Part shown: positions 11,509-44,457 of the stretch, one piece after another
How the letters are laid out: every line of letters starts with the position of its first letter
How positions within the stretch are numbered: the stretch's first letter is position 1
DNA from: Escherichia coli
GTDB taxonomy: Bacteria > Pseudomonadota > Gammaproteobacteria > Enterobacterales > Enterobacteriaceae
Length of the DNA: 64,000 nt
NCBI RefSeq assembly: GCF_044324875.1
Contig: NZ_CP172185.1
Reading direction: 5' to 3' (one strand)
Translations under genes and position numbers: made by a program
The notes under the pieces: generated by a model
Seen by the model: the letters and a program-made list of their open reading frames with translations, nothing else
Database searches by the model: none
Told to the model about the DNA's origin: nothing

Positions 11509-14354
11509 ATGAAAATCTGTCTTTACCATACCCTGAATCCTGAAACGATCCCGGGCTATAAAAAGTTTGCGCAGGCCATTGAGGCAGATAATTTCGCGCA
11601 GGCGGATGTGCGTAAAATTGATACTAATCTCTACCGGGCACGCCTCAGTATCCGGGATCGGTTGTTGTTTTCACTTTACCGTTACCGTGGTGAGACGGTC
11701 TGCCTGGTACTGGAATATCTGCGTAACCATGCTTACCACACGTCACGTTTTCTGCGCAGGAATGTGGTGATCGACGAGGCGCGGCTGCAGCTGCAACCGG
11801 TGCCGGATCCGGCAGATGCAGACGCCGGTACACTGACGTATCTCAACCCCACTCACGGGCGTTTTCACTACCTGGATAAAATGCTCTCTTTTGATGATGA
11901 CCAGCAGGCGCTGTATGAACATCCGATGCCACTGGTGATTGTCGGCTCCGCCGGCAGCGGAAAGACGGCACTGTTACTGGAGAAAATGAAGCAGGCCGGG
12001 GGCGATATTCTGTATCTCAGCCTTTCGTCATTTCTGGTGGAAAAAGCCCGCACACTCTATCACGCATCTGGTGAAGAACATGACGGGCAGACCATTGATT
12101 TTCTGTCGCTGAGCGAGTTTCTGGAAACCCTGCGCATTCCGGAAGGGCGGGAGGTGACGTTCAGTGCGTTCAGCAACTGGCTGCCCCGCAACCGGACCAC
12201 CGCTGCACTGGGCTCTGGCCATACCCTGTATGAGGAATTTCGTGGTGTCATTGGTGCCGTTGCTTCTGACAACGGACCGCTGTCCCGGGAGGCGTATCTG
12301 TCGCTGGGAGTACGTCAGTCACTTTATGATATGGATGACCGTCCGGCGGTTTACGCCCTGTTTGAGCGTTATGTTGCATGGCTGAAACAGTCGCGTCAGT
12401 ATGACAGTAATCTTCTCAGCCACCAGTACCTGCCACTGGCCGGGCACCGTTATGATGTGGTTTTTGTGGATGAAGTGCAGGATATGACGCCTGTGCAGCT
12501 GCGGCTGGTTCTGAAAACCCTGCGTCATCCCGGTCAGTTTGTACTCTGCGGCGATGCCAATCAGATAGTTCATCCCAGCTTTTTTCCTGGAGTGCCCTCA
12601 AAAGCCTCTTTTTCCGGCAGCAACAGAACGAGGCTGCCGTGAATATTCTGCAGGCGAATTACCGTAACGGGCACCATGTCACCGCACTGGCTAACCGGCT
12701 GCTCAGACTTAAACTGGCCCGGTTCAGTGCCATTGACCGGGAAAGTCACCATTTTGTCAGAAGCTGCGGGCAGACGGAAGGCACCATCAGGCTGCTGGAA
12801 GACCGGGAAGCCACCCGCCATGAGCTGAACAGCAAAACCTCCCGCTCAAACCGTGTGGCGGTGATTGTGATGCAGCCGGAGCAGAAAGCACAGGCCCGGC
12901 GCTGGTTCAGTACACCGCTGGTTTTTTCGGTTCAGGAAGTGAAGGGGCTCGAGTACGAAACGGTGATCCTGTACAACATGGTCAGCAGTACCCGTAAGGC
13001 ATTTGATGATATCTGCGAAGGGATCAATCCGGCAGATCCTGAGGGTGAGGTGCGTTATGCCCACCCCCGGGACCGGCAGGATCGTTCAGCAGAAATCTAC
13101 AGGTTTTTCACCAACGCGCTGTATGTTGCGCTCACCCGTGCCACGCACAACGTGTACCTTGTTGAGCAGGAGGTGGCCCATCCGCTGTGGTCCCTGCTGG
13201 CCCTCACGCATCATGAAACGCAACTGGAGCTGCAGGAAGAGATTTCCAGCCGTGATGAGTGGCAGAAAACCGCTCACCTGCTGGAAAAACAGGGGAAGCA
13301 GGAGCAGGTGGACACCATCCGCAGTATGATCCTGCAGGAGTCAGAAGTACCGTGGCAGATCTTCAGCGCAGAGGATGCGCGGCAGTGGAAACAGCAGATC
13401 CTCAGCGGGACGGCGGACAAAGCCACGAAACTGCAGGCGCTGGAATACAGCCTGATTTATTCCCTGTTTCCGCTGTATAATGCGCTGTACCGGGAAGATT
13501 TTAAGCCCACAAGGCAGCCCCGGACCCGGAGCCAGCAGTTACTGGAGCAGAAGTATTTTCGTCCCTACTCAGTGAATAATCCGGTCGCCGTGCTGAGGGA
13601 TATTGAACGTTATGGTGTTGATCACCGCTCGCCGTTTAATCTTACGCCGCTGATGCTGGCAGCCCGGGCGGGGAACACGGCGCTGGTTCAGTTGCTGCTG
13701 GATCGTGGTGCCGATCCCACGCTGACGGCAAATGACGGGCTGGCGGCGTATCATCATGTTCTGTCAGCGGCGGTCAGCACGCCCCGTTATGCGCAGCAGA
13801 AGGGGGCACAACTCTATGCCTTGCCGGGACCGGAAAGCCTGTCACTGCAGGTGGAAGGGCGGCTTGTCAAACTGGACAACCGGCAGATGGCAATGTTTCT
13901 GGTGATCCTGATGCAGGCATTGTTTTACACGCATCTGGGGAATGCTCTGGTTTTTTCAGAAGCCTTCAGTGCGGCACGACTGGCAGAGTGTGTCGCCCAC
14001 TTTCCTGAAGCCCTGCTGCCGGAACGCCGCAGGCGGAGGAATTATATCAGCAGCCAGCTTTCTCAGCATGAAGTTAACAGCAAGAACCCTTATGGAAAAA
14101 AGCTGTTTCTGCGACTGAGGCATGGTCAGTATATTCTTAATCCGGGGCTGAAAATCAGGCAGAATGACGGGTGGTACCCGGTTTACGACTTGCAGTCACC
14201 GGAAGATCTCGGTCATGATTTACAGACGTATCTGCAGGACATGCCCCCGTACATTCTGGAGATTCTGGGGGGCAGGAAGGATGTTTACGAACAAAGTAAG
14301 GGGTCTGTCGGATACTGGGTGGCGATGATCCGCCGTCACAGTGGTGAGCCGTAA
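11509..14354 (+). pseudogene. UvrD/Rep-like SF1 helicase with C-terminal ankyrin repeats, split by a frameshift in a T6 tract (12580-12585)
   Basis: Walker A GSAGSGKT, motif II VFVDEVQD, motif III CGDANQ in frame 1; downstream NYRNG, ALTRATH motifs and ankyrin repeat (LTPLMLAARAGNTALVQLLLDRGADP) in frame 3; adding one T restores one ORF of about 947 aa. Confidence 0.7.
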
Positions 14355-16554: not shown

Positions 16555-16689
16555 ACCGGAACCGTTTACCCCAAGCAGAGCGGCAATAGATCCGCCTGGT
16601 ACTGTGAAGGATGCATCGCGCAGTGCTTTCTGCCCGTTTCGCCAGGTGACAGTAACGCCATTAACGACAATACCCGCAGATTGCATCAT
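16555..16689 (-). pseudogene. sitB: sitB 5' fragment (ABC transporter ATPase, truncated inside the Walker A motif)
   Basis: first ~45 codons resemble SitB-type ATPase (SFTVPGGSIAALLGVNGSG) then diverge into repeat A; start overlaps sitA stop. Confidence 0.6.
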
Positions 16690-17603
16690 TACTTCTCCCT
16701 TTTCCCGGCTTTAATTCCCTGCACCAGCGTACTGGTAGTAACCTTCAGAAGGTCGATATACGTAGGTACCGGGCCGTTTTCTGTGCTCAGGGAATCGACA
16801 TAGAGCACACCGCCGTAGTGTGCGCCGGTTTCACGCGCAACCTGACGCGCTGGTTTATCGGAAACCGTACTCTCACTAAATACCGCTGGGATATTATTTT
16901 TCTTCACTATATCAACCACTTTACGTACCTGCTGGGGTGTTCCTTGTTGATCGGCATTTATCGGCCACAGATAAAGCTCTTTTAGCCCCAAATCGCGTGC
17001 GAGATAAGAAAAAGCCCCTTCACTGGTGACCATCCATCTTTTATTCTCAGGGAGTTCAGCAATCTGCTTACGCAGGGGGGCAAGGGTTTGGGTAATCTTG
17101 GCTTTATAAGTATCGGCATTACGTTGGTATGTTTTTGCATTTGCCGGATCGTATTTTATCAACGCATCGCGAATATTATCGACGTAAATCAAAGCATTAT
17201 CTGGCGACATCCAGGCATGAGGGTTAGGTTTTCCCTCGTAGGGGCCTTCGGTGATCCCTACTGGCGTCACACCCGAAGAGACAATCACTTCTGGAACACC
17301 ACTGAGATGCTGGTAAAAGCGCTGGAACCACAATTCCAGATTCATACCGTTGGCGAGAATCAGTTGTGCCCCCTGCGCACGTTTAATATCGCCAGGGGTA
17401 GGCTGATACTCATGAATTTCTGCACCGGGCCTGGTTATGGATGAGACTTCTGCAGCATCTCCAGCCACGTTTTTGGCCATATCTGCGATGATGGTAAATG
17501 TTGTAATGACCTTGAATTTTTCAGTTGCACTCGCCTGAAATGCTATCGAGCAGGTGAGGGCGAGGCACCCCAGGAGCATGGTTACTTTTTTTATTGAGTG
17601 CAT
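16689..17603 (-). CDS. sitA: SitA, periplasmic Mn/Fe-binding protein of the SitABCD ABC transporter
   Basis: 304-aa ORF with signal peptide; recognised as the SitA/cluster A-I metal-binding protein family. Confidence 0.8.
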   Translation of the reverse strand: MHSIKKVTMLLGCLALTCSIAFQASATEKFKVITTFTIIADMAKNVAGDAAEVSSITRPGAEIHEYQPTPGDIKRAQGAQLILANGMNLELWFQRFYQHLSGVPEVIVSSGVTPVGITEGPYEGKPNPHAWMSPDNALIYVDNIRDALIKYDPANAKTYQRNADTYKAKITQTLAPLRKQIAELPENKRWMVTSEGAFSYLARDLGLKELYLWPINADQQGTPQQVRKVVDIVKKNNIPAVFSESTVSDKPARQVARETGAHYGGVLYVDSLSTENGPVPTYIDLLKVTTSTLVQGIKAGKREK

Positions 17604-17697: not shown

Positions 17698-18237
17698 TAA
17701 TTCAGACCCCAACACAGGCATTAGGTTGTTTCCTGCTGGCGATGTGGTATTGAGGAAAAGCGTAGGACAGATATCAGGCTTTGAAAGTAAGTGTTAAGTT
17801 AAGCGAACGCCGTATTGACGCTTATTTATTGGTGAGTACTACGTTCCATGGCAGGAGTTCGTCATATAGACGATTATCTCAGTAAACATATTTATCCCTC
17901 CTGATAATTGTCTTTAATGATATGTTTTTATTCTTTTTGAAATAACTCACAAAATGATAATCAGGTCTACACAGAAATGTGATACACATCTTGTTTTTTA
18001 AAGAAGAAAAATGACATTGCTCACATATTTATCTGGGTTTATATAAATAATGTAATTATTGTGAAAAGTAACTATTTGATTTTTAAGTATATATTCGCAA
18101 ATCAAATTAGTTAATATTTCAGAGAAATTAGAAGATCTTCACATTTATAAAATCAGAATGTGATTTTTATCTCGGTTTATTACTTGATGATAAAGTATTA
18201 AAGGTTTTAAATATTATGTTTGTATAGGAGTACAATT

Positions 18238-18696
18238 TTGGATATCTATTTTGACGACAGTTTGCTATCCCTGAATCAGAATTTTACATCTCCAGAAGAT
18301 GGTATTCGTTATGCAGGTGAATTATTGCAGAAATCAGGAGCCTGTACATCTGATTATATTGAAGAAATGATCCACACATATCACGAATTTGGCCCAGTTA
18401 TTGTTCTGGATAATGGTGTGGCGATGCCTCATGCTCGACCAGAAAAGGGAGGATTAAAAAGTGCTTTCTCTGTGGTAGTAACAGAATTTCCAGTGATATT
18501 TCATCATCAGGAGTTTGATCCGGTGAATGTCATTATTGCCATCTGTGCCATAGACTCAGATACACATATTCATCTTATTCAGATTGTAGCTGATTTAATT
18601 GAAAGAAATATTGCGTCTTATGTGAGAAATAGTAGCAAAGAGCAGGTCTTATATTTTATCCAGAAATCAATAGAGAGGACGTTATGCTTAAAATAA
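18238..18696 (+). CDS. PTS EIIA component, ascorbate/mannitol-type (PTS_EIIA_2)
   Basis: active-site region GVAMPHARPEKG; start uncertain (TTG 18220 or TTG 18238 after RBS TAGGAG). Confidence 0.65.
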   Translation: MDIYFDDSLLSLNQNFTSPEDGIRYAGELLQKSGACTSDYIEEMIHTYHEFGPVIVLDNGVAMPHARPEKGGLKSAFSVVVTEFPVIFHHQEFDPVNVIIAICAIDSDTHIHLIQIVADLIERNIASYVRNSSKEQVLYFIQKSIERTLCLK

Positions 18697-18965
18697 GAAC
18701 TGTATGCGGCAATGGGATTGGTAGTTCATTAATGGCAGCGAATAATGTTAAAAAAATTTGTGAGGAAATGGGCATAAAAGCAGATGTAGCCTCGGTCGAT
18801 TTTGCTAACGCAGTTGGGGAAAATGCTGATCTGTATATCACTGTTAAAGAGTTTGCCTCACAATTTCCATCTCAGTATAGAGTCGCTGTGATCCGTAGTT
18901 ATGTACATAAGGTGAAAATTGAAGAGGATGTTAAAGATACTTTACAGAAACTGAGTCAATTCTGA
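18684..18965 (+). CDS. PTS EIIB component (UlaB/SgaB-like)
   Basis: 93-aa ORF with N-terminal CGNGIGSS phospho-cysteine motif. Confidence 0.7.
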   Translation: MLKIRTVCGNGIGSSLMAANNVKKICEEMGIKADVASVDFANAVGENADLYITVKEFASQFPSQYRVAVIRSYVHKVKIEEDVKDTLQKLSQF

Positions 18966-18985
18966 TATTTTACAGGGGGTATATT

Positions 18986-20380
18986 ATGACATCAATTCTT
19001 TTAACTCTTACAGAAATCTTCAGTCAACCAGCCTTCCTTATGGGGATTATTTCTTTGGCTGGATTACTGTCATTACGTTCGCCACTTAATAAATTACTAA
19101 CTGGTACACTGAAACCAATCCTCGGTTATTTAATGTTGAGTGCAGGTGCCGGTGTGATTGTTTCAAATTTAAATCCTCTGGGTGGTATTATCGAAGCTGG
19201 ATTTAATATAAGAGGCGTTATACCTAATAATGAAGCGATCGTATCAGTAGCTCAGAAATTACTTGGTGTGGAAACCATGAGCATTTTATTGCTCGGATTT
19301 ATTTTTAATCTTGTCATTGCACGATTTACTAAATATAAGTACATATTTTTAACAGGACATCATTCATTCTTTTTAGCGTGCTTATTTTCTGCGGTATTAC
19401 AGGCTGCGCATTTTAGTAACGGGGAATTGGTCATTATAGGCGGTTTCCTGCTGGGAGCATGGTCTGCGATTTCTCCAGCAATCGGGCAACGTTATACCAG
19501 ACGAGTGACTGAGGATGGAGGGATTGCCATGGGACACTTTGGCTCCTTGGGTTATTATCTGTCAGCCTGGATTGCAGCGAAAGTTGGTAAAGCAGACACA
19601 TCATTTGCTGATACTGAAATTTCTGAAAAATGGGGCTTCCTGCGTGATACCACAGTGACTACCGGTATTGTAATGGTTGTTATTTATCTGGTATGCAGTA
19701 TTGTTGCTGGTTCCGCATATATCAGTACAATTACCGAGCAGAATCTGGTGACCTTCTCCATCCTGTCCGGTCTACAGTTTGCGGTAGGAGTTGCTATTGT
19801 CTACAGTGGTGTGCGTTTAATCCTAGGCGATCTTGTCCCCGCATTTCAGGGGATTAGCCAGAAACTGATACCGAACTCAATTCCGGCTGTTGACTGTGCG
19901 GTATTCTTCACTTTCAGTCCTACTGCAGTGGTGATTGGCTTTATCTGTTCTTTTTTAGGTGGCCTTGTTGGTATGTTGATACTGGGGGGGGTTGGTATGG
20001 CGCTGATTATCCCTGGCATGGTTCCGCACTTCTTCTGTGGTGGTACCTCTGGTGTATTTGCAGATAAGCTTGGAGGTAAAAAAGGTTGTATTATTGCGTC
20101 GTTTATTGGCGGTATTTTCCTCGCTTTTTTACCCGCAATGTTGTTACCTGCACTGGGAAATCTCGGTTTTGAAAACAGTACCTTTGCAGACTTTGACTTC
20201 GCTGTATGGGGGATTGTTATCGGTGAGGCCTTTACTCACTTCGGACAAATTGCTGTTTATATTATTTGTGCTGTTATGAGCCTGGTATTACTGATCCCGT
20301 TTGCTTTTAAATCCATAAAAGTTGTAGGAAATACAATGAGCTATGAAGAGTTAACGAAAAAAGATTATGCTGACAAGTAA
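18986..20380 (+). CDS. PTS EIIC permease (UlaA/SgaT family)
   Basis: 464-aa polytopic membrane protein directly after EIIB; RBS AGGGGG. Confidence 0.7.
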   Translation: MTSILLTLTEIFSQPAFLMGIISLAGLLSLRSPLNKLLTGTLKPILGYLMLSAGAGVIVSNLNPLGGIIEAGFNIRGVIPNNEAIVSVAQKLLGVETMSILLLGFIFNLVIARFTKYKYIFLTGHHSFFLACLFSAVLQAAHFSNGELVIIGGFLLGAWSAISPAIGQRYTRRVTEDGGIAMGHFGSLGYYLSAWIAAKVGKADTSFADTEISEKWGFLRDTTVTTGIVMVVIYLVCSIVAGSAYISTITEQNLVTFSILSGLQFAVGVAIVYSGVRLILGDLVPAFQGISQKLIPNSIPAVDCAVFFTFSPTAVVIGFICSFLGGLVGMLILGGVGMALIIPGMVPHFFCGGTSGVFADKLGGKKGCIIASFIGGIFLAFLPAMLLPALGNLGFENSTFADFDFAVWGIVIGEAFTHFGQIAVYIICAVMSLVLLIPFAFKSIKVVGNTMSYEELTKKDYADK

Positions 20381-20414
20381 ACACAATATTAGTGTAAAGT
20401 ATTAAGGAGTTGTT

Positions 20415-21386
20415 ATGGCTATAATTACTATAGGACTATCCTGTTTTGACCAGTTTTTTTATATAAACAGATGGCCAAAAGAGAATACTAAAAACTTTTC
20501 CTGTGATTTTATTGAAAGTGGTGGCGGCCCCTGTGCCAATGCAGCATGGTTGCTGGGTTTATGGGGCGAGTGTGTGTACTTCTCAGGCCATCTACAAAAC
20601 GATATCTATGGACAGAAAATTATAGATGAGTTTCATGATGTTGGAGTAAATACAGATTATGTGATTTTCAATAATCAAATGCTTACACCGCTGGCATCTA
20701 TACTAGTGAATCAATTAAATGGTTCAAGAACGATTATAACACGCAAACAGAATTATCCCCCACGAATGACATTTGAAGAAAAGCTGAAAATAGATGAATT
20801 GATTACACATCTGACATATGATGATAAAAAGGAAGTTATTACAATATTAATTGACGGCCATGAACCTGAGTTGAGTGAATATATTATACAGCGAATGCCA
20901 GATGCCCGAGTCGTGATGGACGCAGGCTCTCTTCGGGAGAGTAATTTAAATCTGGCTAAATACACAGACTATCTGGTTGCCAGTGAAAACTTTGCCTGTG
21001 AACTATCTGGAATTGAAAAATTTACATCTGATATACAGTTAAACGAAGCTTTAACAGAACTTAATAAATTGTCCCGAGGTCAGCCCTTTATTACTCTTGG
21101 TGAGAGAGGATGTGCATATCTGAAGAATGGAATACCTACAATATCACCAGCTTTTATTTGTAATGCAATCGATACAACAGGTGCCGGTGATGTTTTTCAT
21201 GGTGCTTTTACGTATGGTGTTCATTACAACTGGCATATTGATAATATTATTTTGTTTGCCAGTCTGGCTGCAGCTATTTCTGTTGAAAAAAAAGGTGTCC
21301 GCGAATCCATACCTGATTTAGCTGATGTCCATAATGCTATAAATCAATATGAAAGAAGTAGAGAAAAATACTTTACTTCATTTTAA
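20415..21386 (+). CDS. PfkB-family carbohydrate kinase
   Basis: 323-aa ORF with DTTGAGDVFHGAF motif. Confidence 0.7.
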   Translation: MAIITIGLSCFDQFFYINRWPKENTKNFSCDFIESGGGPCANAAWLLGLWGECVYFSGHLQNDIYGQKIIDEFHDVGVNTDYVIFNNQMLTPLASILVNQLNGSRTIITRKQNYPPRMTFEEKLKIDELITHLTYDDKKEVITILIDGHEPELSEYIIQRMPDARVVMDAGSLRESNLNLAKYTDYLVASENFACELSGIEKFTSDIQLNEALTELNKLSRGQPFITLGERGCAYLKNGIPTISPAFICNAIDTTGAGDVFHGAFTYGVHYNWHIDNIILFASLAAAISVEKKGVRESIPDLADVHNAINQYERSREKYFTSF

Positions 21387-21409
21387 GTTATACACAAGCA
21401 AGAGGAAAT

Positions 21410-22276
21410 ATGATGTTAGTTTCTATAGAGAATATGCTTAATCGTGCCCTTGTACATCAGTACGCAGTTGGTCAGTTTAATATCAATAACCTGGAGTGGA
21501 CAGGTACTGTGTTAAATGTTGCACAAAAATTACGTTCTCCGGTTATTTTAGGCGTCTCCGGTGGCACTATAAAACATATGCTTGGGCTGAAATGTATTCA
21601 CGATATTGTTGTTAACGCAATGGAATTCCTGGAAATAGATGTGCCGGTGGCTTTACATCTTGATCACGGTCAGTCTTATGAGGCTTGTGAGGCGGCAATT
21701 AAAGCAGGTTTCAGCTCAGTAATGTTTGACGGTTCACATATGCCTTTTGCCGAAAATCTGGCAATAACAAAACGTCTGGTGAAGTATGCCCATCGTCGGG
21801 GAGTATCTGTGGAAGCAGAGCTAGGCACGATTGCAGGAAGTGAAGATGGCATTGTTAATTCCCGAGTGATTTATGCAGATCCTACAGAATGTAAGCAACT
21901 TGTTGAGGAGACAGGAGTGGATTGTCTGGCTGCAGCACTTGGTTCCACACATGGATTATATAAAGGAAAAGCAAAACTCGGTTTTGCGGAAATGGAACAT
22001 ATATCACAGTTGGTAAAAGTACCCCTGGTACTTCATGGGGGCACAGGTATTTCAGATACGGATATGAAAAAAGCTATTTCACTTGGCACAGCAAAAATCA
22101 ATGTTAATACCGAAAATATGTATGCGTGGTGTTTGTCAGTGAAAGAACAGTTTGAACATAAGGGGGAACATGATATTAATGATCCCCGAAAAGTTATTAC
22201 GAAAGGATTGCAGCCAGTTGCAGAACGAGTGGCAGAACGAATGAGCCTGTTCGGCTCTGTTGGACAGTCCCTCTGA
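21410..22276 (+). CDS. class II ketose-bisphosphate aldolase (GatY/KbaY/Fba family)
   Basis: 288-aa ORF with N-terminal QYAVGQFNINNLE and metal-ligand region LHLDHG. Confidence 0.7.
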   Translation: MMLVSIENMLNRALVHQYAVGQFNINNLEWTGTVLNVAQKLRSPVILGVSGGTIKHMLGLKCIHDIVVNAMEFLEIDVPVALHLDHGQSYEACEAAIKAGFSSVMFDGSHMPFAENLAITKRLVKYAHRRGVSVEAELGTIAGSEDGIVNSRVIYADPTECKQLVEETGVDCLAAALGSTHGLYKGKAKLGFAEMEHISQLVKVPLVLHGGTGISDTDMKKAISLGTAKINVNTENMYAWCLSVKEQFEHKGEHDINDPRKVITKGLQPVAERVAERMSLFGSVGQSL

Positions 22277-25821: not shown

Positions 25822-26240
25822 GTAAGCGGCTCGCCAGAACCGTATTGATATTTACTGAGAGGTCAGATCAACTTTCCAGGGCAACAGATCGCGTACCCGG
25901 TTTGCCGGCCAGTCCTGGATATGCTCAATAACGTAACGCAGCCATTTTTCTGGCTCCACATTGTTCAGACGGCATGTGCCGATCAGTGAGTACAACACCG
26001 CCGCATGTTCGCCACCGCTGTCGGAACCCGCGAAGAGCCAGTTTTTCCGGCCTACGGCCACTCCCCGTAAGGCGTTCTCTGCGATGTTGTTGTCGATTTC
26101 CGCCTGACCATTATGCAGTACACGTTCAGCGCATCCCACTGTTTCGGCAGGCATGCGAACGCTTTTACTGTATCCGGGTGACGCGACAGTGTTTTCATCT
26201 GTTGCTGTATCCAGTCATACTACGCCAGCATCATTGGTAG
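25822..26240 (-). mobile_element. IS66-family remnant: terminal repeat plus frameshifted tnpC 3' fragment
   Basis: GTAAGCGGCTCGCC terminus at 25822; ORF 25852-26154 with [23 protein letters not shown]; upstream homology continues in another frame. Confidence 0.65.
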
Positions 26241-26306
26241 CACCTGGGCTTTTTTTGCCGCAGGCGCTGGTTCGCAGACTACTAAAATAATACGCGGTTT
26301 TTCATT

Positions 26307-27539
26307 TTACGGACGGGCAGCCAGAAGACACAGTTGAAATGCCACATTATACGATTCCTCAAAGGATTTTAGAGGTAGAAACTCAAATATGGAGTGAAAA
26401 TTATGTGCGCCAGTAAAAAAATTAGGCGTCAAAATTCCTCTGGCTGACAGAACTGCACCATCAGTTCCACCACGCATTGGTATCGGTTTTGGTGTAATTC
26501 CCAGCATATTCATGGACTCAAAGAGTAGATCTACAGCACGTCTGTCTTTGTTTAAAGCATTACTAATATTGCTGTAGATATCAGTGATCGTGAACTCAAC
26601 CCTGGCTGTCGGATATCGGGAAGATATTTTATGTGCAACAGCAGCAATCTGTTGTTTTCTGCGAGTAAAACTGGATTGATCAAAATCACGTATACTTGCC
26701 TGTAACACAGCATTACTTTGTCCGGCATTCATACCATTGAACCAGATATAACCTTCACGACCAGCGGTATTCTCCGGTGTTTCAAGGCGATCAAATTCAT
26801 TTATGTAATCACAGGCCATCAGTAATGGATTAACTAATACATTTTTTGCAGACATCGGATGTGCCGTTACACCAGTAAAACGGATCTCTGCAGATGCAGC
26901 GTTAAAGTTTTCATAAACAATCTCTCCTGACTCGCAACAGTCAATTGTCCAGGCAAAGTCAACAGAAAAACGTTGTAAATCAAGAGACTTAGCTCCACGC
27001 AAGCCTGTTTCCTCATCAGGGACAAATGCAACCACAATATCACCATGCTGATGTTCTGAGGTCAGATTCTCCAGCATAGTCATCACTACCGAAACAGCGG
27101 CTTTATTATCAGCCCCTAGTACACTTGTTCCGTCGCTGAAAATAATGTCTTCCCCCCGATATTTCAGAATTTCGGGATGCTCTTTGACCCGCAGCCAGAT
27201 ATCTTTTTCTGCATTGAGACACAAATCTTCACCTGTAAATTTCAAAATTTGTGGATGAATATCCGGAGATAAACCAACATCTACTGTATCAATATGAGTA
27301 ATGAAACCAATTCGAGGCGCACCCGGAATATTACCTTTTTTCACCGCGGTGACCGTTGCATGCTCATCAACAATAATATCGTCCATATCCAGCAACGCCA
27401 GTTCATCTGCAAGTGTCCGGGCCATCTCATACTGTCCTTGTGTGGACGGAAGGGATGCTGAATTTGGGTCACTCTGGCTACTGATTGAAAGGTAGCGAAA
27501 GAAACGTTGGATTAATTGACTGCTTAATGGGGAGTACAT
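26307..27539 (-). CDS. peptidase T-like tripeptidase (M20B family)
   Basis: motifs GADNKAAV, PDEETGLRGA, RGGTDGA parallel to PepT. Confidence 0.7.
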   Translation of the reverse strand: MYSPLSSQLIQRFFRYLSISSQSDPNSASLPSTQGQYEMARTLADELALLDMDDIIVDEHATVTAVKKGNIPGAPRIGFITHIDTVDVGLSPDIHPQILKFTGEDLCLNAEKDIWLRVKEHPEILKYRGEDIIFSDGTSVLGADNKAAVSVVMTMLENLTSEHQHGDIVVAFVPDEETGLRGAKSLDLQRFSVDFAWTIDCCESGEIVYENFNAASAEIRFTGVTAHPMSAKNVLVNPLLMACDYINEFDRLETPENTAGREGYIWFNGMNAGQSNAVLQASIRDFDQSSFTRRKQQIAAVAHKISSRYPTARVEFTITDIYSNISNALNKDRRAVDLLFESMNMLGITPKPIPMRGGTDGAVLSARGILTPNFFTGAHNFHSIFEFLPLKSFEESYNVAFQLCLLAARP

Positions 27540-27657
27540 AACTTTTCCTTCTTTTTTTGTGTTATGAGGTGAATGCAATACGCATTTAATGTTATTTATT
27601 AATCTGTAACCGATGCGGATTCATCACTCCATATTGTCAAAGAAAACAGGAAAAGTC

Positions 27658-29250
27658 ATGGTAAGAAGATTAGCGACTATTGCACCGTTACTGGTTGCGT
27701 TGGGTGTAAGCTCAACTGTTTATGCAAAGACACTGGTTTACTGCTCTGAAGGCTCACCTGAGAGTTTTAATCCTCAGCTTTATACTTCGGGGACCAGTGT
27801 TGATGCAAGTGCTGTTCCGGTGTATAACCGACTGGTTGATTTTAAGGTGGGCACTACTGTGCTGGTTCCCAGCCTGGCTGAACGATGGGAAATCAGTGGT
27901 GACGGGAAAGCATATACTTTTTATCTGCGTAAAGGCGTTAAATTTCACAGTAATAAATACTTTACTCCAACGCGAGAGTTTAATGCTGATGATGTTATTT
28001 TTTCATTTATGCGCCAGAAGGATCCTGGTCATCCATATCACCAGGTTTCTGGTGGAACGTATTCTAATTTTGAAAGTCTGGAATTCAGTTCACTCATAAC
28101 CAGTATCGACAGAGTTGATGATCATACAGTTCGCTTTAATCTTTCACATCCGGAGGCTCCCTTTATTGCTGATTTAGCCTGGTATTTTGCTTCTGTTTTA
28201 TCCGCTGAATATGCTGATGCTATGCTTAAAGCCGGAACACCTGAACGGGTTGATATGAATCCAATTGGGACAGGGCCATATCAACTCAAACAATATCAGA
28301 AAGATTCGCGTATTTTATTTACGGCTTTTGATGATTACTGGGAGGGGAAAGCAAAACTGGAACGCATTGTTTTCAGTATCACACCAGATTCCTCAGTGCG
28401 TCTGGCTAAACTGGAGAAAAATGAGTGTCAGGTGATGCCGTTTCCTAATCCATCAGATCTTTCCAGAATCAAAAAAAATCCGGCTCTTAAATTGATGAGT
28501 AAAGCCGGACTTAATACAGGTTTTCTTGCTTTCAATACGCAAAAAGCTCCTCTGGATAATGTAAAAGTTCGTCAGGCACTGGCAACAGCAATTAATAAAA
28601 ATGCCATTATAGATGCTGTATTTCAGGGGACTGGTAGTGCTGCTAAAAATCTGCTGCCACCAGGAGTATGGAGTGCAGACAGTGAATTGAAAGATTATGA
28701 ATATGATCCAGAAAAAGCCAGATCATTGCTAAAAGAAGCTGGTTTTGATAATGGAATGACTATTGATCTTTGGGCGATGCCAGTTCAACGCCCTTATAAC
28801 CCAAACGCTAAACGAATGGCCGAAATGATTCAGGCTGACTGGGCAAAAGTGGGAGTAAAAACAAACATTATCACTTTTGAATGGGGGGAATATCTTAATC
28901 GTATAAAGAACGGAGAGCATCAGGCTGCGTTGATGGGATGGACAACCGCAACAGGTGATCCTGATAATTTTTTTGGTCCACTCTTTACCTGCACTTCTGC
29001 TAACGGTGGTTCTAATTCCGCGAAGTGGTGCTACAAACCTTTCGATGAAATTATTTCTCAGGCTAAAGTAATAACTGATCAGGAAAAACGAGCAGTGCTC
29101 TATAAAAAAGCACAACAGATGATGCATGAACAAATACCAGCGGTGATGATTGCACATTCCACCATTTTTGAACCAATACGCAGTGAAGTCACAGGTTATG
29201 AAATAGATCCATTTGGTAAACATATTTTTTATCAGGTTGATATAAAATAA
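27658..29250 (+). CDS. ABC transporter periplasmic substrate-binding protein, family 5 (DppA/OppA-like peptide-binding)
   Basis: signal peptide plus SBP_bac_5-like length and composition; no permease or ATPase genes adjacent. Confidence 0.65.
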   Translation: MVRRLATIAPLLVALGVSSTVYAKTLVYCSEGSPESFNPQLYTSGTSVDASAVPVYNRLVDFKVGTTVLVPSLAERWEISGDGKAYTFYLRKGVKFHSNKYFTPTREFNADDVIFSFMRQKDPGHPYHQVSGGTYSNFESLEFSSLITSIDRVDDHTVRFNLSHPEAPFIADLAWYFASVLSAEYADAMLKAGTPERVDMNPIGTGPYQLKQYQKDSRILFTAFDDYWEGKAKLERIVFSITPDSSVRLAKLEKNECQVMPFPNPSDLSRIKKNPALKLMSKAGLNTGFLAFNTQKAPLDNVKVRQALATAINKNAIIDAVFQGTGSAAKNLLPPGVWSADSELKDYEYDPEKARSLLKEAGFDNGMTIDLWAMPVQRPYNPNAKRMAEMIQADWAKVGVKTNIITFEWGEYLNRIKNGEHQAALMGWTTATGDPDNFFGPLFTCTSANGGSNSAKWCYKPFDEIISQAKVITDQEKRAVLYKKAQQMMHEQIPAVMIAHSTIFEPIRSEVTGYEIDPFGKHIFYQVDIK

Positions 29251-30349
29251 CAGGTGTAAGCTCCGTCTGTGACGTCTGGTGATAGTTGTCCAGTCTGGTA
29301 ACAATAGCGTCCATCTATACAGATGGACGCGAATGATGAATTTTCAGACAACAAGATATTGATGGTTTTCGTTTTTATCTGCCCGACGCATTACGTCTAA
29401 TATTCGAAGAACAATTATCTGTCTGGTTAATCGCTCATCAGTCAGGGCTAAGTCATTTCACCATCACGATTTCTTTTAACGATTACCCGAATGAGCAAAG
29501 TGAGGATGATGCCATGACGCAGGTCAGAGCGACCAGCACCGCGACAATTAATAAAACAGGAAGGCTGCGCGTTTCAGACAGTGATGTCAACATAAACTAT
29601 CAGTAACGTTAACTGCATCAGAAGCACAAGTATGGATTTTGCCATTGTGCAGAACGACTTGTCCATGGGAAATAATAAATTTAATAAAAAAAGAAAGATA
29701 TGGTTGCAAATAGTATAATATCCCGGGCAACGATCCTGATTTTCTCAATACATGTTTTCCTCACGTATTTGTTCTTCAAAGAGCAATCAGCATCTGTTAC
29801 TGAATGGTTGTTATAAGCATTAAAAGAATAACGGGAAGTCGGTGACGTGGGGATATGTCGCGTGTTGAATTATACAAAGGGCCGACATCTTCATGGTGTC
29901 GGCCAGTCATAAGTGCCAGATATTAACCGTCAGTTACAGGGGGTAACCGCAGGAAACAGGCTACGCTCCGGGTAACGGGTTATCAATAGTTACTTATTTG
30001 CTTAATTTAATTAATTTTGTTCTGCGTCATTGCGTTTCCTTACTGGTATAAATAATGATCGATTGCTTTTCGCATGAGCATCAGAATTTGTCGTAATTTG
30101 AGGTACTGTCGCTGCACATGCAGGAATATGGTTCTGTCAGCGACAGATTGCCGTTGCTGACCGGAATGTTCAGGCTGGATGGTGATATTACAACTGATAT
30201 TGCTGTGCTGATGGCAGAATGGTAAACGTTAAGTGCGCGTTCCAGGCAATGAAGGCAAACACGTCATGACAGCAACGCAAAACAAACCAAGAACGCGCAG
30301 TATTTTTTATCCCGAATGAAAGCGATTGTCCATATCCGGTAATAAATAT

Positions 30350-30601
30350 TCAGCAGTATGTAAAGTGCGGTTTGCCCGGCTCTGGTGGAAGGGGCTCCAG
30401 ATACACATCATCAACAAACACACACGGGAAGTTATCCACCGGGCAGCCTGCACGGTCAGCCATATCCCGCAGCGTCACACTGTGCTTCGCGACATCAATA
30501 AACACAACATCCGGTTCCATTTCATCGGGGATTCGCGTTGCGTGATGCATGATGCGATGGACTGAAGGGCAGTGCCGGTAACCAAAAACACGTATACGCA
30601 T
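30350..30601 (-). CDS. glutaredoxin-like small protein (putative)
   Basis: 83-aa ORF MRIRVFGYRHCPS... with a glutaredoxin-like beta1-CPxx layout; weak. Confidence 0.3.
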   Translation of the reverse strand: MRIRVFGYRHCPSVHRIMHHATRIPDEMEPDVVFIDVAKHSVTLRDMADRAGCPVDNFPCVFVDDVYLEPLPPEPGKPHFTYC

Positions 30602-30891
30602 GATGTACCTCCTGGTTGCAGGGTGACTGTATCATCAGACCTTATCATGCGTTTAAAAAATGTCCGGCAACTCACACTTTTCGGTAAGGAGGTGGCTATT
30701 ACTGCAAATGATGATGTCTCGGTTTTTATTTTTTATTCAATATTTTCATCCTGTTATTGTTATTATGTTTGTCCATACCCTGTGTGGTTCCCTGCGTATT
30801 CCGCTCTATTCGATCACGGATTGGCATCGAAGTCCGATCAGCGATTCGCATCCATTCGATCAACCGGGAACTTAACTTTTTCTACCGCTTT

Positions 30892-31647
30892 TTAACGCGT
30901 TTTTTCGCTGCTTTCCACTACCGGGGGATTTTTCCTCAGTGACTCTCCCTGAAGGACCACTCGGTGTGAGTTATGTACCAGTCTGTCCAGGATGGCATCT
31001 GCTGTTGTTGGGTTCTCCATCAGACCATGCCATTTATCTACCGGGAACTGGCTTACCACTATCGTGCTGCTTTGTCCGTAACGATCCTCTATGAGCTCCA
31101 GAAGGTCATTACACTGGGCGTTACTTAACTGTTCCAGCCCCAGATCGTCCAGGATTAGAACCTGTATTTTTTGCAACTGTTTCAGATATTTCAGCCAGCT
31201 GCCATCAACACGTCCCTGAGCCAGTTGTTCCAGTAATCGCCCGGTTCTACAGTACCGGACGCTGTGTTTCTGTCGACATGCCTGTTCGCCCAGCGCATTG
31301 GCTATCCAGCTCTTGCCACATCCTGTCGGACCGGTTATCAGCAGGTTTTTCCTGTGGGTTATGTAGTGGCCGTTCAGCAGTTCTCTCATCTGTTCAGCCC
31401 GCAGACCTCTTGAGGCCGGATAGCGCAGCCCTTCCGGTGTTGCCTGGTATTTCAGGCCGGCATTTTTTCTCAACCGTGCCACACGGCTGTTTTCCCTGCT
31501 CAGAAGCTCGTCATCAACCAGCAGCGTCAGCCTTTCCTCGAACGACAGTTCGTCGTAGGTCTGAGGCGTTTCCCGCTGCCGTATCAGGCTCCCGGCCATC
31601 GCCGGGAGTTTCAGTTGGGTCAGTTTGTTTAACAGGTTATCACTCAT
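30892..31647 (-). CDS. IS21-family helper ATPase IstB
   Basis: Walker A GPTGCGKS, Walker B ILDDLG; start placed at MSDNLL inside the longer listed ORF. Confidence 0.8.
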   Translation of the reverse strand: MSDNLLNKLTQLKLPAMAGSLIRQRETPQTYDELSFEERLTLLVDDELLSRENSRVARLRKNAGLKYQATPEGLRYPASRGLRAEQMRELLNGHYITHRKNLLITGPTGCGKSWIANALGEQACRQKHSVRYCRTGRLLEQLAQGRVDGSWLKYLKQLQKIQVLILDDLGLEQLSNAQCNDLLELIEDRYGQSSTIVVSQFPVDKWHGLMENPTTADAILDRLVHNSHRVVLQGESLRKNPPVVESSEKTR

Positions 31648-31663
31648 ACTGTTGTTCCTTCTG

Positions 31664-43087: not shown

Positions 43088-44281
43088 TTATTTCGTTTGT
43101 ACGTTTTTCTCCATAAGTGAATCAATGTAATCAGCGTACCACTGCATCATTTCACGACGTCCATCGAGATACAGGGCATGATTATAGGTACCCCTGATGG
43201 AGTTTTTATCCACATGCGCTAACTGCATTTCAATCCAGGCAGAATTAAAGCCCTGTTCGTGCAGAATTGTGCTCATTGTGTGACGAAAACCATGGCCGGT
43301 TGCTCTGCCATCGTAACCGATGCGTTTTAGTACCATATTGATGCTGGCTTCACTCATCGGTTTGTTAACATCGCAACGTCCGGGGAATATAAGGCGATAC
43401 TGCCCGGTAAAACGATGCAATTCCTGCAGCAGTGAAATGGCCTGGCGTGACAGAGGAACAATATGATGCCTGCGCATTTTCATTCGCTCTTCAGGGATAT
43501 GCCAGAGTGCGTTGTCAGAATCAATTTCTGACCATTCGGCCAGCCGCAATTCAATCGTTCTGAGTCCGGTCAGCATCAGCAGGCTCGTCGCCATACGGGT
43601 GACAGGACTGCCATGATAGTCAGCGAGCTTCCGGAGAAAAACAGGAAGTTCATCCGCTCTCAGATGGGGAAAATGTGCGGTTTTTGGTGCCGCCAGCGTA
43701 CTGGTCAGTTCTGATGCAGGATTGACAGTGGCACGTCCTGTGGCAATGGCATAACGGAAAATCTGATTGCAGTATTGACGGACCTTGCGTAATTTTTCCA
43801 GAGAGCCACGTTTTTCAATACGACGCAAAATCTCCAGCATTTCCAGCGGGAGGATATCAGTCACGCTCCGGTTGCTCAGATACGGGAAAACGTCTTTATC
43901 CAGCGCTTCCAGTACGCTTCTGGCGTAACTGTCAGACCATGATAAAGATTTATGATGATGCCATTCCATTGCGAGAGCATGAAAGGTGTTGGTGACAGAG
44001 ATTTTCTGAGAGAGTTTTTCCCTTCGCTTCTTTTCACCGGGATCTCCACCCTCGGATATAATTTTTCGTGCATCGTCGCGTCTGGTTCTGGCTTCAGCAA
44101 GGGAGACGTCAGGATAGACGCCGAGGGACAGTTTTTTCTCCTTTCCTGCTGTTCTGTACTTAAGGCGCCAGTAGCGTGCTCCCGTGGTTTTTACCAGCAG
44201 ATATAAACCACGTTCATCAGAAAGTTTATAATCTTTGTCTTTAGGTCTTGCCGTTTCGACCTGTCTGGCTGTAAGTGCCAT
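43088..44281 (-). CDS. P4-type tyrosine integrase
   Basis: N-terminal LTARQVETARPKDKDYKLSDERGLYL arm-binding domain; catalytic R...HxxR...Y region (GHGFRHT, RGTYNHA). Confidence 0.85.
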   Translation of the reverse strand: MALTARQVETARPKDKDYKLSDERGLYLLVKTTGARYWRLKYRTAGKEKKLSLGVYPDVSLAEARTRRDDARKIISEGGDPGEKKRREKLSQKISVTNTFHALAMEWHHHKSLSWSDSYARSVLEALDKDVFPYLSNRSVTDILPLEMLEILRRIEKRGSLEKLRKVRQYCNQIFRYAIATGRATVNPASELTSTLAAPKTAHFPHLRADELPVFLRKLADYHGSPVTRMATSLLMLTGLRTIELRLAEWSEIDSDNALWHIPEERMKMRRHHIVPLSRQAISLLQELHRFTGQYRLIFPGRCDVNKPMSEASINMVLKRIGYDGRATGHGFRHTMSTILHEQGFNSAWIEMQLAHVDKNSIRGTYNHALYLDGRREMMQWYADYIDSLMEKNVQTK

Positions 44282-44457
44282 ATGGGGGCCCCTTAAACTG
44301 ACCGAACACAATGAGCCCCCAAATGTGCCCCCATTTAATGCTTGATTCAGGGGGTGTTCAATAGAATTCGGTGGAGTTCAAAATGTCCGGAACGATTATA
44401 AATCAGTGATTATACATGAATTTCGTGGAGTGCGGGGGATGTGTGTAGAAGTGAAGG

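Follow-up and report, generated by a model that had tools for sequence, protein, structure and literature searches.

How a periplasmic peptide-binding protein could serve a cell in which no permease or ATPase gene accompanies it is the question raised by a divergent gene pair in the 64,000-nucleotide stretch of Escherichia coli DNA analyzed here, hereafter called the window. One gene, pepT2 (26307..27539, minus strand), encodes a 410-aa cytoplasmic M20B peptidase that is a paralogue of PepT. The other (27658..29250, plus strand) encodes an orphan DppA-derived periplasmic solute-binding protein of 530 aa, referred to below as the binding protein. As initially annotated, the two genes diverge from a 118-bp spacer (27540..27657, no strand assigned), and both promoters are presumed to lie inside it. 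The open reading frames span 26307-27578 on the minus strand and 27613-29250 on the plus strand, and the likeliest starts are the ATG codons at 27539 and 27658, since homologues of PepT2 (409-410 aa) and of the binding protein (530-531 aa) align from residue 1. The earlier remark that no permease or ATPase gene is found nearby was borne out by tblastn searches with E. coli DppB, DppC, DppD and DppF, which were empty across the whole window, the best E value (0.013) falling inside the ATPase of an IS21 element. Pseudogene remnants of neighboring genes flanking the pair were also searched for in the window, and none was found. A hairpin with a perfect 10-bp stem and a 4-nt loop (29307..29330, plus strand) lies 57 nt past the binding-protein stop codon, with a fold energy of -18.1 kcal/mol (z = -4.7 versus shuffles). 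It was flagged by a terminator scan on the minus strand only, and the plus strand lacks a good U-tract; judging from its form and position, the hairpin is probably the 3' end of a monocistronic binding-protein transcript and would act as its terminator. No credible Rfam match to a riboswitch or known RNA was obtained in the 1.1-kb gap downstream.

The arrangement is not particular to the window. Homologues of the binding protein (71-84% identity) were found at 80 species-representative loci, with the divergent pair present at 74, and no DppB, DppC, DppD or DppF homologue was found within 7 kb at any of the 80. The genera checked cover the Enterobacteriaceae, Erwiniaceae, Yersiniaceae and Pectobacteriaceae, and the clade ranges over plant-, soil- and gut-associated Enterobacter, Klebsiella oxytoca, Raoultella, Kosakonia, Pantoea, Erwinia, Dickeya and Serratia. 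Only two gene families were common across the loci, the binding protein (79 loci) and PepT2 (72 loci), the next family being present at 37. No conserved third gene, whether regulator or transporter, was found at these loci; the commonest other neighbor (37/80) is lineage-specific. LysR, M20 and MFS genes adjoin the pair only in the Erwiniaceae, and in Kosakonia and Raoultella the pair resides in the core chromosome with a tehB-like gene on one side and a DUF3313 gene on the other. Three loci (L049, L084 and L086) carry the binding protein without PepT2. Recurrence of the divergent pair at 74 of 80 loci indicates that the adjacency is more than chance, and the two genes make up a long-standing, broadly conserved unit, no local oddity of the island on which the E. 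coli copy is found. Searches with the binding protein and with PepT2 each gave thousands of related proteins. No prior characterization of the clade was found in the literature by accession numbers and descriptive terms, and the clade is annotated only generically.

The binding protein matched Pfam SBP_bac_5 (PF00496; E = 4.1e-109, 365 bits, profile positions 2-367 of 368) over its central domain and belongs to the cluster C peptide-nickel-opine group. The nearest characterized relative is DppA (64-69% identity; 64% over 519 residues for E. coli DppA), and the top PDB matches were the DppA structures 5f1q, 8z1y and 1dpp. Outside the protein's own cluster, the next 50%-identity cluster representative was 54% identical. 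A near-identical protein is labeled by PGAP only as 'ABC transporter substrate-binding protein'. The initial annotation had called the product a lipoprotein-type receptor, a description that the N-terminus contradicts. The signal peptide (MVRRLATIAPLLVALGVSSTVYA, 27658..27726, plus strand) is of the Sec/signal-peptidase-I type and is followed directly by KTL, with no lipobox. In the translation, set against the N-terminal region of DppA (its signal peptide and the mature start KTLVYC), it ends in TVYA before KTLVYC; cleavage at this point is predicted by homology to mature DppA, the 1dpp structure beginning at the aligned Lys. The first Cys is found at mature position 6, the same as in DppA, and a regular-expression search for the lipobox [LVI][ASTVI][GAS]C gave no match in the binding protein or in any of 54 full-length homologues.

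Two residues anchor the termini of the ligand in DppA, and the clade has kept one of them. Arg383 of DppA (mature Arg355) forms a salt bridge with the ligand carboxylate (PMC12136057), and its counterpart, the putative C-terminal carboxylate anchor Arg378 (28789..28791, plus strand), is retained, with Arg aligned at this position in 81 of 81 clade members. Asp436 of DppA (mature Asp408) forms a salt bridge with the ligand alpha-amino group (PMC12136057, PMC3295651 and PMC12728205). This N-terminal amine anchor is lost: DppA Gly435-Asp436-Asn437 is replaced by Thr430-Ala431-Thr432 (28945..28953, plus strand), the G435T and D436A changes being invariant in the window protein and all 80 homologues and the third residue being Thr in 75 and Asn in 6. 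Among 250 clade-invariant columns, 215 are identical to DppA and 35 hold clade-specific substitutions. In the wider family, about one quarter of the 50%-identity cluster representatives have no acidic residue at the Asp436 position. DppA D436 also forms a salt bridge with DppB Arg42 (PMC12136057). A DppB E41A/R42A mutant nevertheless retains transport (PMC12136057), so docking does not necessarily depend on the D436-R42 contact. The protein is no DppA equivalent: it scored 882.3 bits against the NCBIfam DppA_dipep model (NF043070), under the equivalog cut-off of 1005, and has lost Asp436 throughout the clade. Given the loss of the amine anchor, a role as an ordinary dipeptide scavenger is improbable.

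PepT2 matched Pfam Peptidase_M20 and M20_dimer and scored above the NCBIfam/PRK cut-offs of PRK13381 (667.2 bits, cut-off 293), PRK05469 (467.5, cut-off 255) and TIGR01882 (322.3, cut-off 285.75). Its PDB matches were the PepT structures 3ife and 1fno, equidistant at approximately E = 1e-77, and PepT-like M20.018 proteins, 3rza among them, are more distant from it than these true PepT enzymes. It shares 36% identity with the PepT of E. coli itself. From the 1FNO structure, we take the di-zinc ligands of PepT to be H78, D140, E174, D196 and H379 and the catalytic residues to be D80 and E173. All of these (E. coli PepT numbering) are present in PepT2 and in each of 73 clade members, and the enzyme keeps a complete di-zinc M20 active site, with every catalytic and metal-binding residue. 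A D141N change adjoining a metal ligand is also invariant in the clade. PGAP names a 99.8%-identical copy 'peptidase T', and PepT2 itself, with no residue changed, occurs on 382 recorded contigs. Classical PepT has been reported to be active on tripeptides only, which makes it a poor fit with a binding protein that has no amine anchor.

Spacer length was mostly 105-127 bp among 73 loci measured. The window spacer (27540-27657) had been singled out for promoter analysis, and a simple scan of it and of two homologous spacers returned no consensus sigma-70 promoter; the spacer matched no riboswitch or other known RNA in Rfam. A conserved AT-rich element (TTAATGTTATTTATTA, 27586..27601, no strand assigned) occupies the middle of the spacer and is a candidate regulator-binding site. 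Apart from the pepT2 ribosome-binding site by the start codon, it is the best-conserved block of a 38-sequence spacer alignment, with the consensus tT.aTGtTAT.tAT and with TGTTAT in 34 of the 38 spacers. By eye, the TTAATGTTATTTAT element bore only a partial, non-conserved resemblance to the FNR, CRP, ArcA, PhoB, NagC, Lrp and ArgR consensus sequences, and it was assigned to none of them. Control by the GcvB sRNA, as for dppA, was likewise rejected: RNAduplex comparison of the GcvB R1 region with the leaders gave no significant pairing (z = -0.5 to +1.9 for the binding-protein leader of the window and those of nine homologues, versus -2.5 for the dppA control). The candidate pepT2 -10 hexamer, GATAAT in other Enterobacteriaceae, reads CATAAC in the window (by eye). 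The conserved AT-rich element, together with the lack of a consensus sigma-70 promoter, suggests that both genes are co-regulated by an activator from the short shared spacer.

The analysis shows which genes are present, that their pairing is conserved, which residues have changed and that no permease is encoded in cis; from this we infer a transport partner, a ligand class, cytoplasmic cleavage and co-regulation as follows. The two genes would constitute a self-contained 'bind and cleave' module requiring a translocator encoded elsewhere, a reading to which we assign a probability of roughly 0.55. Duplication of an enterobacterial DppA would have produced the secreted binding protein, which would capture in the periplasm a small ligand resembling a peptide and grip its C-terminal carboxylate with the retained Arg (DppA Arg383). 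With Gly-Asp-Asn changed to Thr-Ala-Thr, the Asp-ammonium salt bridge is gone, and its loss implies a ligand that is either tripeptide-sized, being longer N-terminally, or without a free amine at that point. The loaded binding protein would dock on a shared peptide ABC translocator, of which DppBCDF is the likeliest and OppBCDF a possible one, and the cytoplasmic PepT paralogue would hydrolyze the ligand after import. Both genes would be driven from the short shared control region with its conserved AT-rich element. A search for dppBCDF, proposed with the initial annotation, located it in 5421 of 5426 complete E. coli genomes; since it is found in nearly all Enterobacterales, its presence is uninformative about a partnership with the binding protein. 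The original idea of a peptide-scavenging module dependent on a remote transporter agrees with the conserved orphan pair and with the prevalence of dppBCDF, but the Asp436 to Ala change in 81 of 81 members renders generic 'peptide scavenging' doubtful. Of the explanations available, reliance on a translocator whose genes lie elsewhere accounts best for the data. The simple 'tripeptide' reading of the ligand is weakened by the tripeptide-preferring DppA2 and DppA4 of Pseudomonas aeruginosa, which retain Gly-Asp-Asn (PMC12728205), so tripeptide binding needs no loss of the Asp. The three loci with the binding protein but no PepT2, and the damage seen in some E. coli copies (described below), also count against the bind-and-cleave reading.

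Several known systems offer points of comparison for such a module. E. coli DppA (1DPP, 8Z1Y) shares the PF00496 fold family, the signal-peptide type, the mature N-terminus KTLVYC and Arg383 with the binding protein. It is, however, encoded by the first gene of the dppABCDF operon, whereas the binding protein has no dppBCDF in cis, carries Thr-Ala-Thr and 35 clade-specific substitutions, and shows no significant GcvB pairing. GbpA/HbpA of the Pasteurellaceae is likewise a lineage-specific DppA duplicate with re-tuned specificity, and GbpA, a glutathione-binding DppA paralogue, feeds DppBCDF (PMC3295651); the GbpA/HbpA structure 3m8u matched the binding protein with E = 2e-175. GbpA differs in that it retains the acidic anchor Asp432, is often a lipoprotein and has no conserved peptidase partner, whereas the binding-protein clade is limited to the Enterobacterales, has no Asp and is not lipidated. 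MppA, the murein tripeptide binding protein, is an orphan cluster-C binding protein that borrows OppBCDF, and YgiS also uses Opp (PMC3173086). With proteins of the MppA, YgiS and GbpA type, the clade shares the absence of a cognate permease and ATPase in cis across species. In E. coli K-12, mppA is presumably close to mpaA, encoding a cytoplasmic peptidase that degrades the imported peptide. By analogy, MppA/MpaA would be the closest functional counterpart of a binder-plus-hydrolase module; MppA is an OppA rather than a DppA paralogue, though, MpaA is an M14 amidase rather than an M20B enzyme, and the two do not form a strict divergent pair. In P. aeruginosa, the paralogues DppA1-A5 have distinct ligand profiles and feed one DppBCDF, and DppA5, encoded at a separate genomic site, binds neither di- nor tripeptides; in contrast to the binding protein, all five retain Gly-Asp-Asn, and the available text of this study reports no PepT partner for them (PMC12728205). 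For PepT2, the comparison is with PepT (M20.003, 1FNO), which it resembles in length, domain organization and metal and catalytic residues, passing TIGR01882 and PRK13381. It differs in its 36% identity, its invariant D141N and its constant pairing with a binding-protein gene, canonical pepT being unpaired.

The strongest competing explanation also borrows Dpp or Opp and differs in the ligand, which would be no normal peptide but an N-acylated or N-blocked dipeptide or a carboxylate-bearing pseudo-peptide, with PepT2 acting as a deacylase or amidase. The M20 enzymes include many N-acyl-amino-acid hydrolases, and the distance of PepT2 from PepT and its altered residue beside a metal ligand speak for such a role. 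The loss of the amine anchor in every clade member while the carboxylate anchor is kept favors this reading, as does the fraction of the wider family without an acidic residue at this position. In addition, every characterized di- or tripeptide-binding DppA retains Gly-Asp-Asn (PMC12728205), and HbpA2, likewise without the Asp, binds no peptides (PMC3295651). Against this, PepT2 passes the peptidase T equivalog model and is closer to 1fno and 3ife than to the M20.018 protein 3rza, and the gene neighborhood yields no ligand candidate; we regard a blocked ligand as a tentative possibility. Slightly more speculative is the proposal that the clade is a new specificity class of the DppA family, which would have given up the universal Asp-ammonium clamp to recognize an N-blocked or non-canonical peptide. 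PepT2, as its obligate partner, would then be the first M20B enzyme with a natural substrate other than a plain tripeptide, and the two would make up a dedicated import-and-unmask pathway that exploits the housekeeping DppBCDF translocator across the Enterobacterales. Candidates for the ligand would include peptides that are acylated or cyclised, conjugates of peptides from the cell wall or from plants, and peptide antibiotics.

Whatever the role of the pair in its native hosts, the E. coli copy might be non-functional, decaying cargo that has hitch-hiked into its present context. The pair occurs in only one of 5426 complete E. coli genomes, and its GC3 is 0.30-0.34 versus 0.49-0.73 in homologues. 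It is rare, low-GC, horizontally acquired cargo on a pathogenicity-island mosaic, for which the donor is taken to be an unsampled low-GC enterobacterium; a plasmid origin was rejected, with no match in PLSDB. The left edge of the acquired block carries an IS66-family transposase remnant (25852..26154, minus strand; C-terminal fragments of Pfam DDE_Tnp_IS66), and the block common to other E. coli islands begins at 26044. An IS21-family element with IstA-/IstB-like ORFs (30793..33431, minus strand; Pfam IstB_IS21, rve and Mu-transpos_C_2) is inserted in the acquired block, and none of the eight other E. coli copies used for comparison has it (alignment breakpoints 30792 and 33432 versus L088-L095). 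No dppB, dppC, dppD or dppF was found in these eight island contexts. Elsewhere in the window, sitA (16689-17603) encodes another binding protein, orphaned by truncation and followed by only a short downstream fragment. Decay is favored by the rarity and foreign codon usage of the pair, by the CATAAC hexamer upstream of pepT2 and by damage in two strains, one with IS1 in the spacer (L092) and one with a frameshifted binding-protein gene (L095). Both ORFs are, however, full length and intact in the window and identical or nearly so in six of the eight other contexts, and the recurrence of the exact PepT2 protein on hundreds of contigs also argues against decay, which we consider improbable. The E. 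coli copies are nearly identical, which leaves a dN/dS comparison without power.

It is a little more improbable that the binding protein is a sensor for a chemoreceptor or sensor kinase, its adjacency to PepT2 reflecting shared regulation only. DppA itself doubles as the dipeptide chemoreceptor partner of Tap, and no genome examined has a transporter in cis; on the other hand, no chemoreceptor, kinase or regulator is conserved beside the pair, and tight family-wide coupling to a cytoplasmic hydrolase suggests that the ligand reaches the cytoplasm. Very improbable, and effectively refuted, is the view that IS activity in the mosaic island removed the permease and ATPase genes of a dppABCDF-like operon and left the binding-protein gene behind as a stump. 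In its favor, IS66 remnants to the left and IS21 to the right bracket the pair, and the truncated sitA lies in the same window. Against it, 74 of 80 species have the orphan arrangement, several of them in stretches of core chromosome free of IS elements; the stop codon is followed by a strong hairpin; no dppB-like remnant is found downstream or elsewhere in the window; and the IS21 element is window-specific and 1.5 kb away.

Orphan peptide-binding proteins determine which compounds enter through the shared Dpp and Opp translocators, among them nutrients, signaling peptides and peptide-mimetic antibiotics. Because the amine anchor is missing throughout the clade, a sharp hypothesis can be tested at low cost. 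Once identified, the ligand would extend a textbook family by one specificity class, help to explain the second PepT and permit proper annotation of the clade.

Two intact open reading frames in opposite orientation were found where the initial annotation had placed a divergent pair. The minus-strand gene, pepT2 (26307-27539), encodes a PepT-type M20 peptidase of 410 amino acids, and the plus-strand gene (27658-29250) encodes a DppA-like periplasmic binding protein of 530 amino acids. The ATGs at 27539 and 27658 were taken as the best start codons because homologues are 409-410 and 530-531 amino acids long, respectively, and their alignments begin at residue 1. These starts therefore define a spacer of 118 bp (27540-27657), exactly the figure originally given. 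The absence of permease and ATPase genes nearby was confirmed as well: tblastn searches with the E. coli DppB, DppC, DppD and DppF sequences returned no homologue in the 64-kb window.

PepT2 matches the Pfam families Peptidase_M20 and M20_dimer, and scores above the NCBIfam cut-offs for PRK13381 (667 bits, cut-off 293), PRK05469 (467, cut-off 255) and TIGR01882 (322, cut-off 285.75). Its identity to E. coli's own PepT is only 36%. The PepT structures 3ife and 1fno are about equally distant from it (roughly E = 1e-77 each), and the PepT-like M20.018 protein 3rza is much more distant. Residues H78, D80, D140, E173, E174, D196 and H379 are invariant in all 73 members of the PepT2 clade. Asn142 (27116-27118) is likewise Asn in 73 of 73; it aligns with Asp141 of E. 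coli PepT, which follows the metal-bridging Asp140, and D141N is thus a fixed difference adjacent to the active site. With these key residues invariant and no signal peptide recognized in the translation by eye, PepT2 is expected to work in the cytoplasm as a catalytically competent M20B enzyme. The substrates of classical PepT are free tripeptides only (PMC10394242).

The binding protein matches PF00496 (E = 4e-109), shares 64% identity with E. coli DppA across 519 residues and has an identical mature N-terminus. The nearest solved structures are those of DppA, and the next representative outside its own 50%-identity cluster is 54% identical. Together these comparisons mark it as an Enterobacterales-specific paralogue derived from DppA. 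Its score on the NCBIfam DppA equivalog model, 882 against a cut-off of 1005, nevertheless sets it apart from ordinary DppA. Nor does the original description as a lipoprotein-type receptor hold, since the leader is of the signal-peptidase-I type and a lipobox is absent both here and in 54 homologues. In DppA the dipeptide is clamped by Arg383, which holds the carboxylate, and Asp436, which holds the alpha-ammonium group, and an R383D/D436R double mutant does not bind (PMC12136057). Asp436 lies in a Gly-Asp-Asn motif that E. coli DppA shares with all five DppA paralogues of P. aeruginosa, among them DppA2 and DppA4, which prefer tripeptides (PMC12728205). Strict conservation of this Asp extends across the DppA and GbpA clades, and the Pasteurellaceae paralogue HbpA2, with Arg in its place, binds no peptides (PMC3295651). 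The window's binding protein shares Arg383 with DppA but lacks Asp436, having Thr-Ala-Thr in place of Gly-Asp-Asn. G435T, D436A and Arg383 are invariant in all 81 members of its clade. The D436 column holds Asp in 85 of 136 wider-family representatives, among which the Thr-Ala-Thr triplet is confined to this clade. At 33 further positions the whole clade carries a substitution that sets it apart from E. coli DppA, including Y25V, D95M, N99D, Y114N, D153Y and R197L (mature numbering).

Conservation of the pair was examined with one genome per species, giving 80 loci whose binding-protein relative is 71-84% identical. At 74 of these the gene directly upstream, on the other strand, encodes a PepT2 homologue (68-83% identity), mostly across a spacer of 105-127 bp. 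No DppB, DppC, DppD or DppF homologue was found within 7 kb at any of the 80 loci, the sole matches in this search being of ~31% to unrelated ABC ATPases at four Rahnella/Rouxiella loci. Of the six exceptions to pairing, one is cut off where the locus ends; in two, from Raoultella, an insertion of foreign DNA lies at the 5' end of the binding-protein gene, where a sister Raoultella locus carries a prophage; and three (L049, L084 and L086) truly lack PepT2. When flanking open reading frames were clustered, only the binding protein (79 loci) and PepT2 (72 loci) were common throughout; the third commonest family (37 loci) is lineage-specific. The checked genera of pair carriers span Enterobacteriaceae, Erwiniaceae, Yersiniaceae and Pectobacteriaceae, and in Kosakonia and Raoultella the pair sits in the core chromosome between a tehB-like gene and a DUF3313 gene. 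Conservation across species and in such core-chromosome settings argues that the orphan state is ancestral and selected, and it rules out a by-product of the window's IS elements.

Some neighbourhoods vary. In Edaphovirga cremea (L049, 4180-11128) a binding protein with the Thr-Ala-Thr motif but no PepT2 is flanked on one side by MurQ-like (SIS) and PTS EIIBC genes and on the other by genes for an MFS transporter and a different M20 peptidase. At 13-14 loci, for example in Erwinia persicina (L053, 8613-12390), the pair is followed closely downstream by genes for a LysR regulator, an M20 peptidase of 474 aa and an MFS transporter. The repeated association with an M20 peptidase and an MFS transporter might hint at the ligand class.

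In E. coli the pair is rare island cargo, found in only one of 5426 complete RefSeq genomes and on no PLSDB plasmid; an identical PepT2 protein is on record for 382 contigs. Within the window, itself a mosaic of E. coli genomic islands, the pair belongs to a low-GC block of ~7 kb (26044-30792 plus 33432-35755). At least eight further E. coli assemblies carry this block at 98-100% identity, placed in several different island settings and never accompanied by a permease. The two genes have a GC3 of 0.30-0.34, compared with 0.49-0.73 in ten sampled homologues, and their closest species-representative relatives reach only 84% protein identity; this combination points to an unsampled, lower-GC enterobacterium as the donor. 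An IS66 remnant and a complete IS66 lie to the left of the pair. To the right, an IS21-family element (30793-33431; minus-strand IstA-like 31664-33310 and IstB-like 30892-31890) sits within the block and is specific to the window. None of eight other E. coli assemblies compared carries it; all read continuously across 30792/33432 with an overlap of a few bases, which suggests a target-site duplication. Four small envelope-related genes always accompany the pair in E. coli islands. One is a glutaredoxin-like ORF of 83 aa (30350-30601, minus strand), which has no Pfam match and is named 'glutaredoxin domain-containing protein' by PGAP. The other three encode a lipoprotein paralogue of the BON/DolP-like type (33555-34142), a YebF-like protein (34189-34542, minus strand) and a small beta-barrel outer-membrane protein of the Ail/Opacity type (34858-35601). 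All four look like additional housekeeping envelope genes that came from the same foreign donor as the pair. Two sister assemblies carry damaged copies, one with IS1 inside the 118-bp spacer (L092, 9184-9880) and one with frameshifts splitting the binding-protein gene into three ORFs beside an intact pepT2 (L095, 8288-9882).

The rest of the window holds other island material, and no tRNA gene was found anywhere in it. Further left of the pair, PTS, kinase and aldolase genes accompany a truncated sit locus. The sugar-utilisation cluster (18220-22276; PTS EIIA, (EIIB), galactitol-type EIIC, PfkB-family kinase and class II aldolase) has a GC content of ~0.38 and matches its counterparts in other E. 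coli islands at 99.9% identity. A sitA-like gene for a metal-binding protein of the ZnuA family (16689-17603) stands alone, followed in sister assemblies L089 and L091 by only a 123-aa product. It is a second orphan binding-protein gene, orphaned by decay, in contrast to the conserved DppA-like orphan. A UvrD-like helicase, apparently split over two ORFs (11509-14354) of which the second bears ankyrin repeats, gives only weak PADLOC matches to GajB-like helicases and may represent either a disrupted gene or a defence candidate not yet characterised. The three dynamin-like or AAA GTPase genes leoC-leoB-leoA (35984-40078), with very strong PADLOC matches (237, 725 and 928 bits, respectively), are the LeoA locus known from ETEC pathogenicity islands, which also figures among candidate anti-phage 'dynamin' systems. 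In the region 43088-64000, a P4-type tyrosine integrase (43088-44311, minus strand) precedes an SPI-7/ICE-type backbone with ParA/ParB, an island DnaB helicase and topoisomerase III, 95-97% identical to islands of avian and human E. coli.

The spacer had been proposed as a shared promoter region. A simple sigma-70 scan recovered no consensus promoter in it or in two homologous spacers; an alignment of 38 spacers did reveal a conserved AT-rich element, TTAATGTTATTTAT (27586-27601). This is the best-conserved block apart from the pepT2 ribosome-binding site, which adjoins the pepT2 start codon, and TGTTAT is present in 34 of the 38. Read by eye, Enterobacteriaceae have GATAAT ~25 nt upstream of the pepT2 start, where the window has CATAAC. 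GATAAT would put the AT-rich element near -40 of pepT2, where class II activators bind. No known regulator consensus fitted the element convincingly, and the spacer had no Rfam match. The dppA gene is repressed by GcvB; similar control of the binding-protein gene was rejected, as no significant pairing with the leaders was found. A perfect 10-bp hairpin lies 57 nt 3' of the binding-protein stop codon (-18.1 kcal/mol, z = -4.7). Rfam gave no credible match in the 1.1 kb downstream of the gene, which contains no ORF longer than 53 aa and no remnant of the genes flanking the pair in other species. This ORF-poor stretch (29251-30349) is kept along with the low-GC block in all E. coli copies.

The most economical model, to which we assign a probability of roughly 55%, is a two-gene bind-and-cleave module that borrows its translocator. 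The binding protein would capture a small ligand with a free carboxylate and an N-terminal side unlike that of a dipeptide, the loaded protein would dock on DppBCDF, with OppBCDF a possible alternative, and PepT2 would hydrolyse the imported ligand in the cytoplasm. DppBCDF is about an even bet as the partner; a genome search located dppBCDF in 5421 of 5426 complete E. coli genomes. Loss of D436 also removes a salt bridge to Arg42 of DppB, but a DppB E41A/R42A mutant still transports (PMC12136057), so this loss need not block docking. Precedents for borrowing include GbpA, which uses DppBCDF (PMC3295651), MppA and YgiS, which use OppBCDF (PMC3173086), and DppA1-5, all five of which use one DppBCDF (PMC12728205). 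As for the ligand, a plain tripeptide whose N-terminal side reaches into the space freed by D436A would suit a tripeptidase partner, though at less than even odds; the known tripeptide-binding DppAs, however, retain the Asp. Their retention of it therefore makes an N-blocked or otherwise unusual peptide, with PepT2 as an unmasking hydrolase, a serious alternative of similar probability.

The initial interpretation survives in part. Reliance of the orphan binding protein on a remote transporter is probable. Given D436A throughout the clade, the binding protein may not be a general peptide scavenger. No publication describing the pair was found in the literature searched; the module is an uncharacterised, widely conserved version of a known kind of system.
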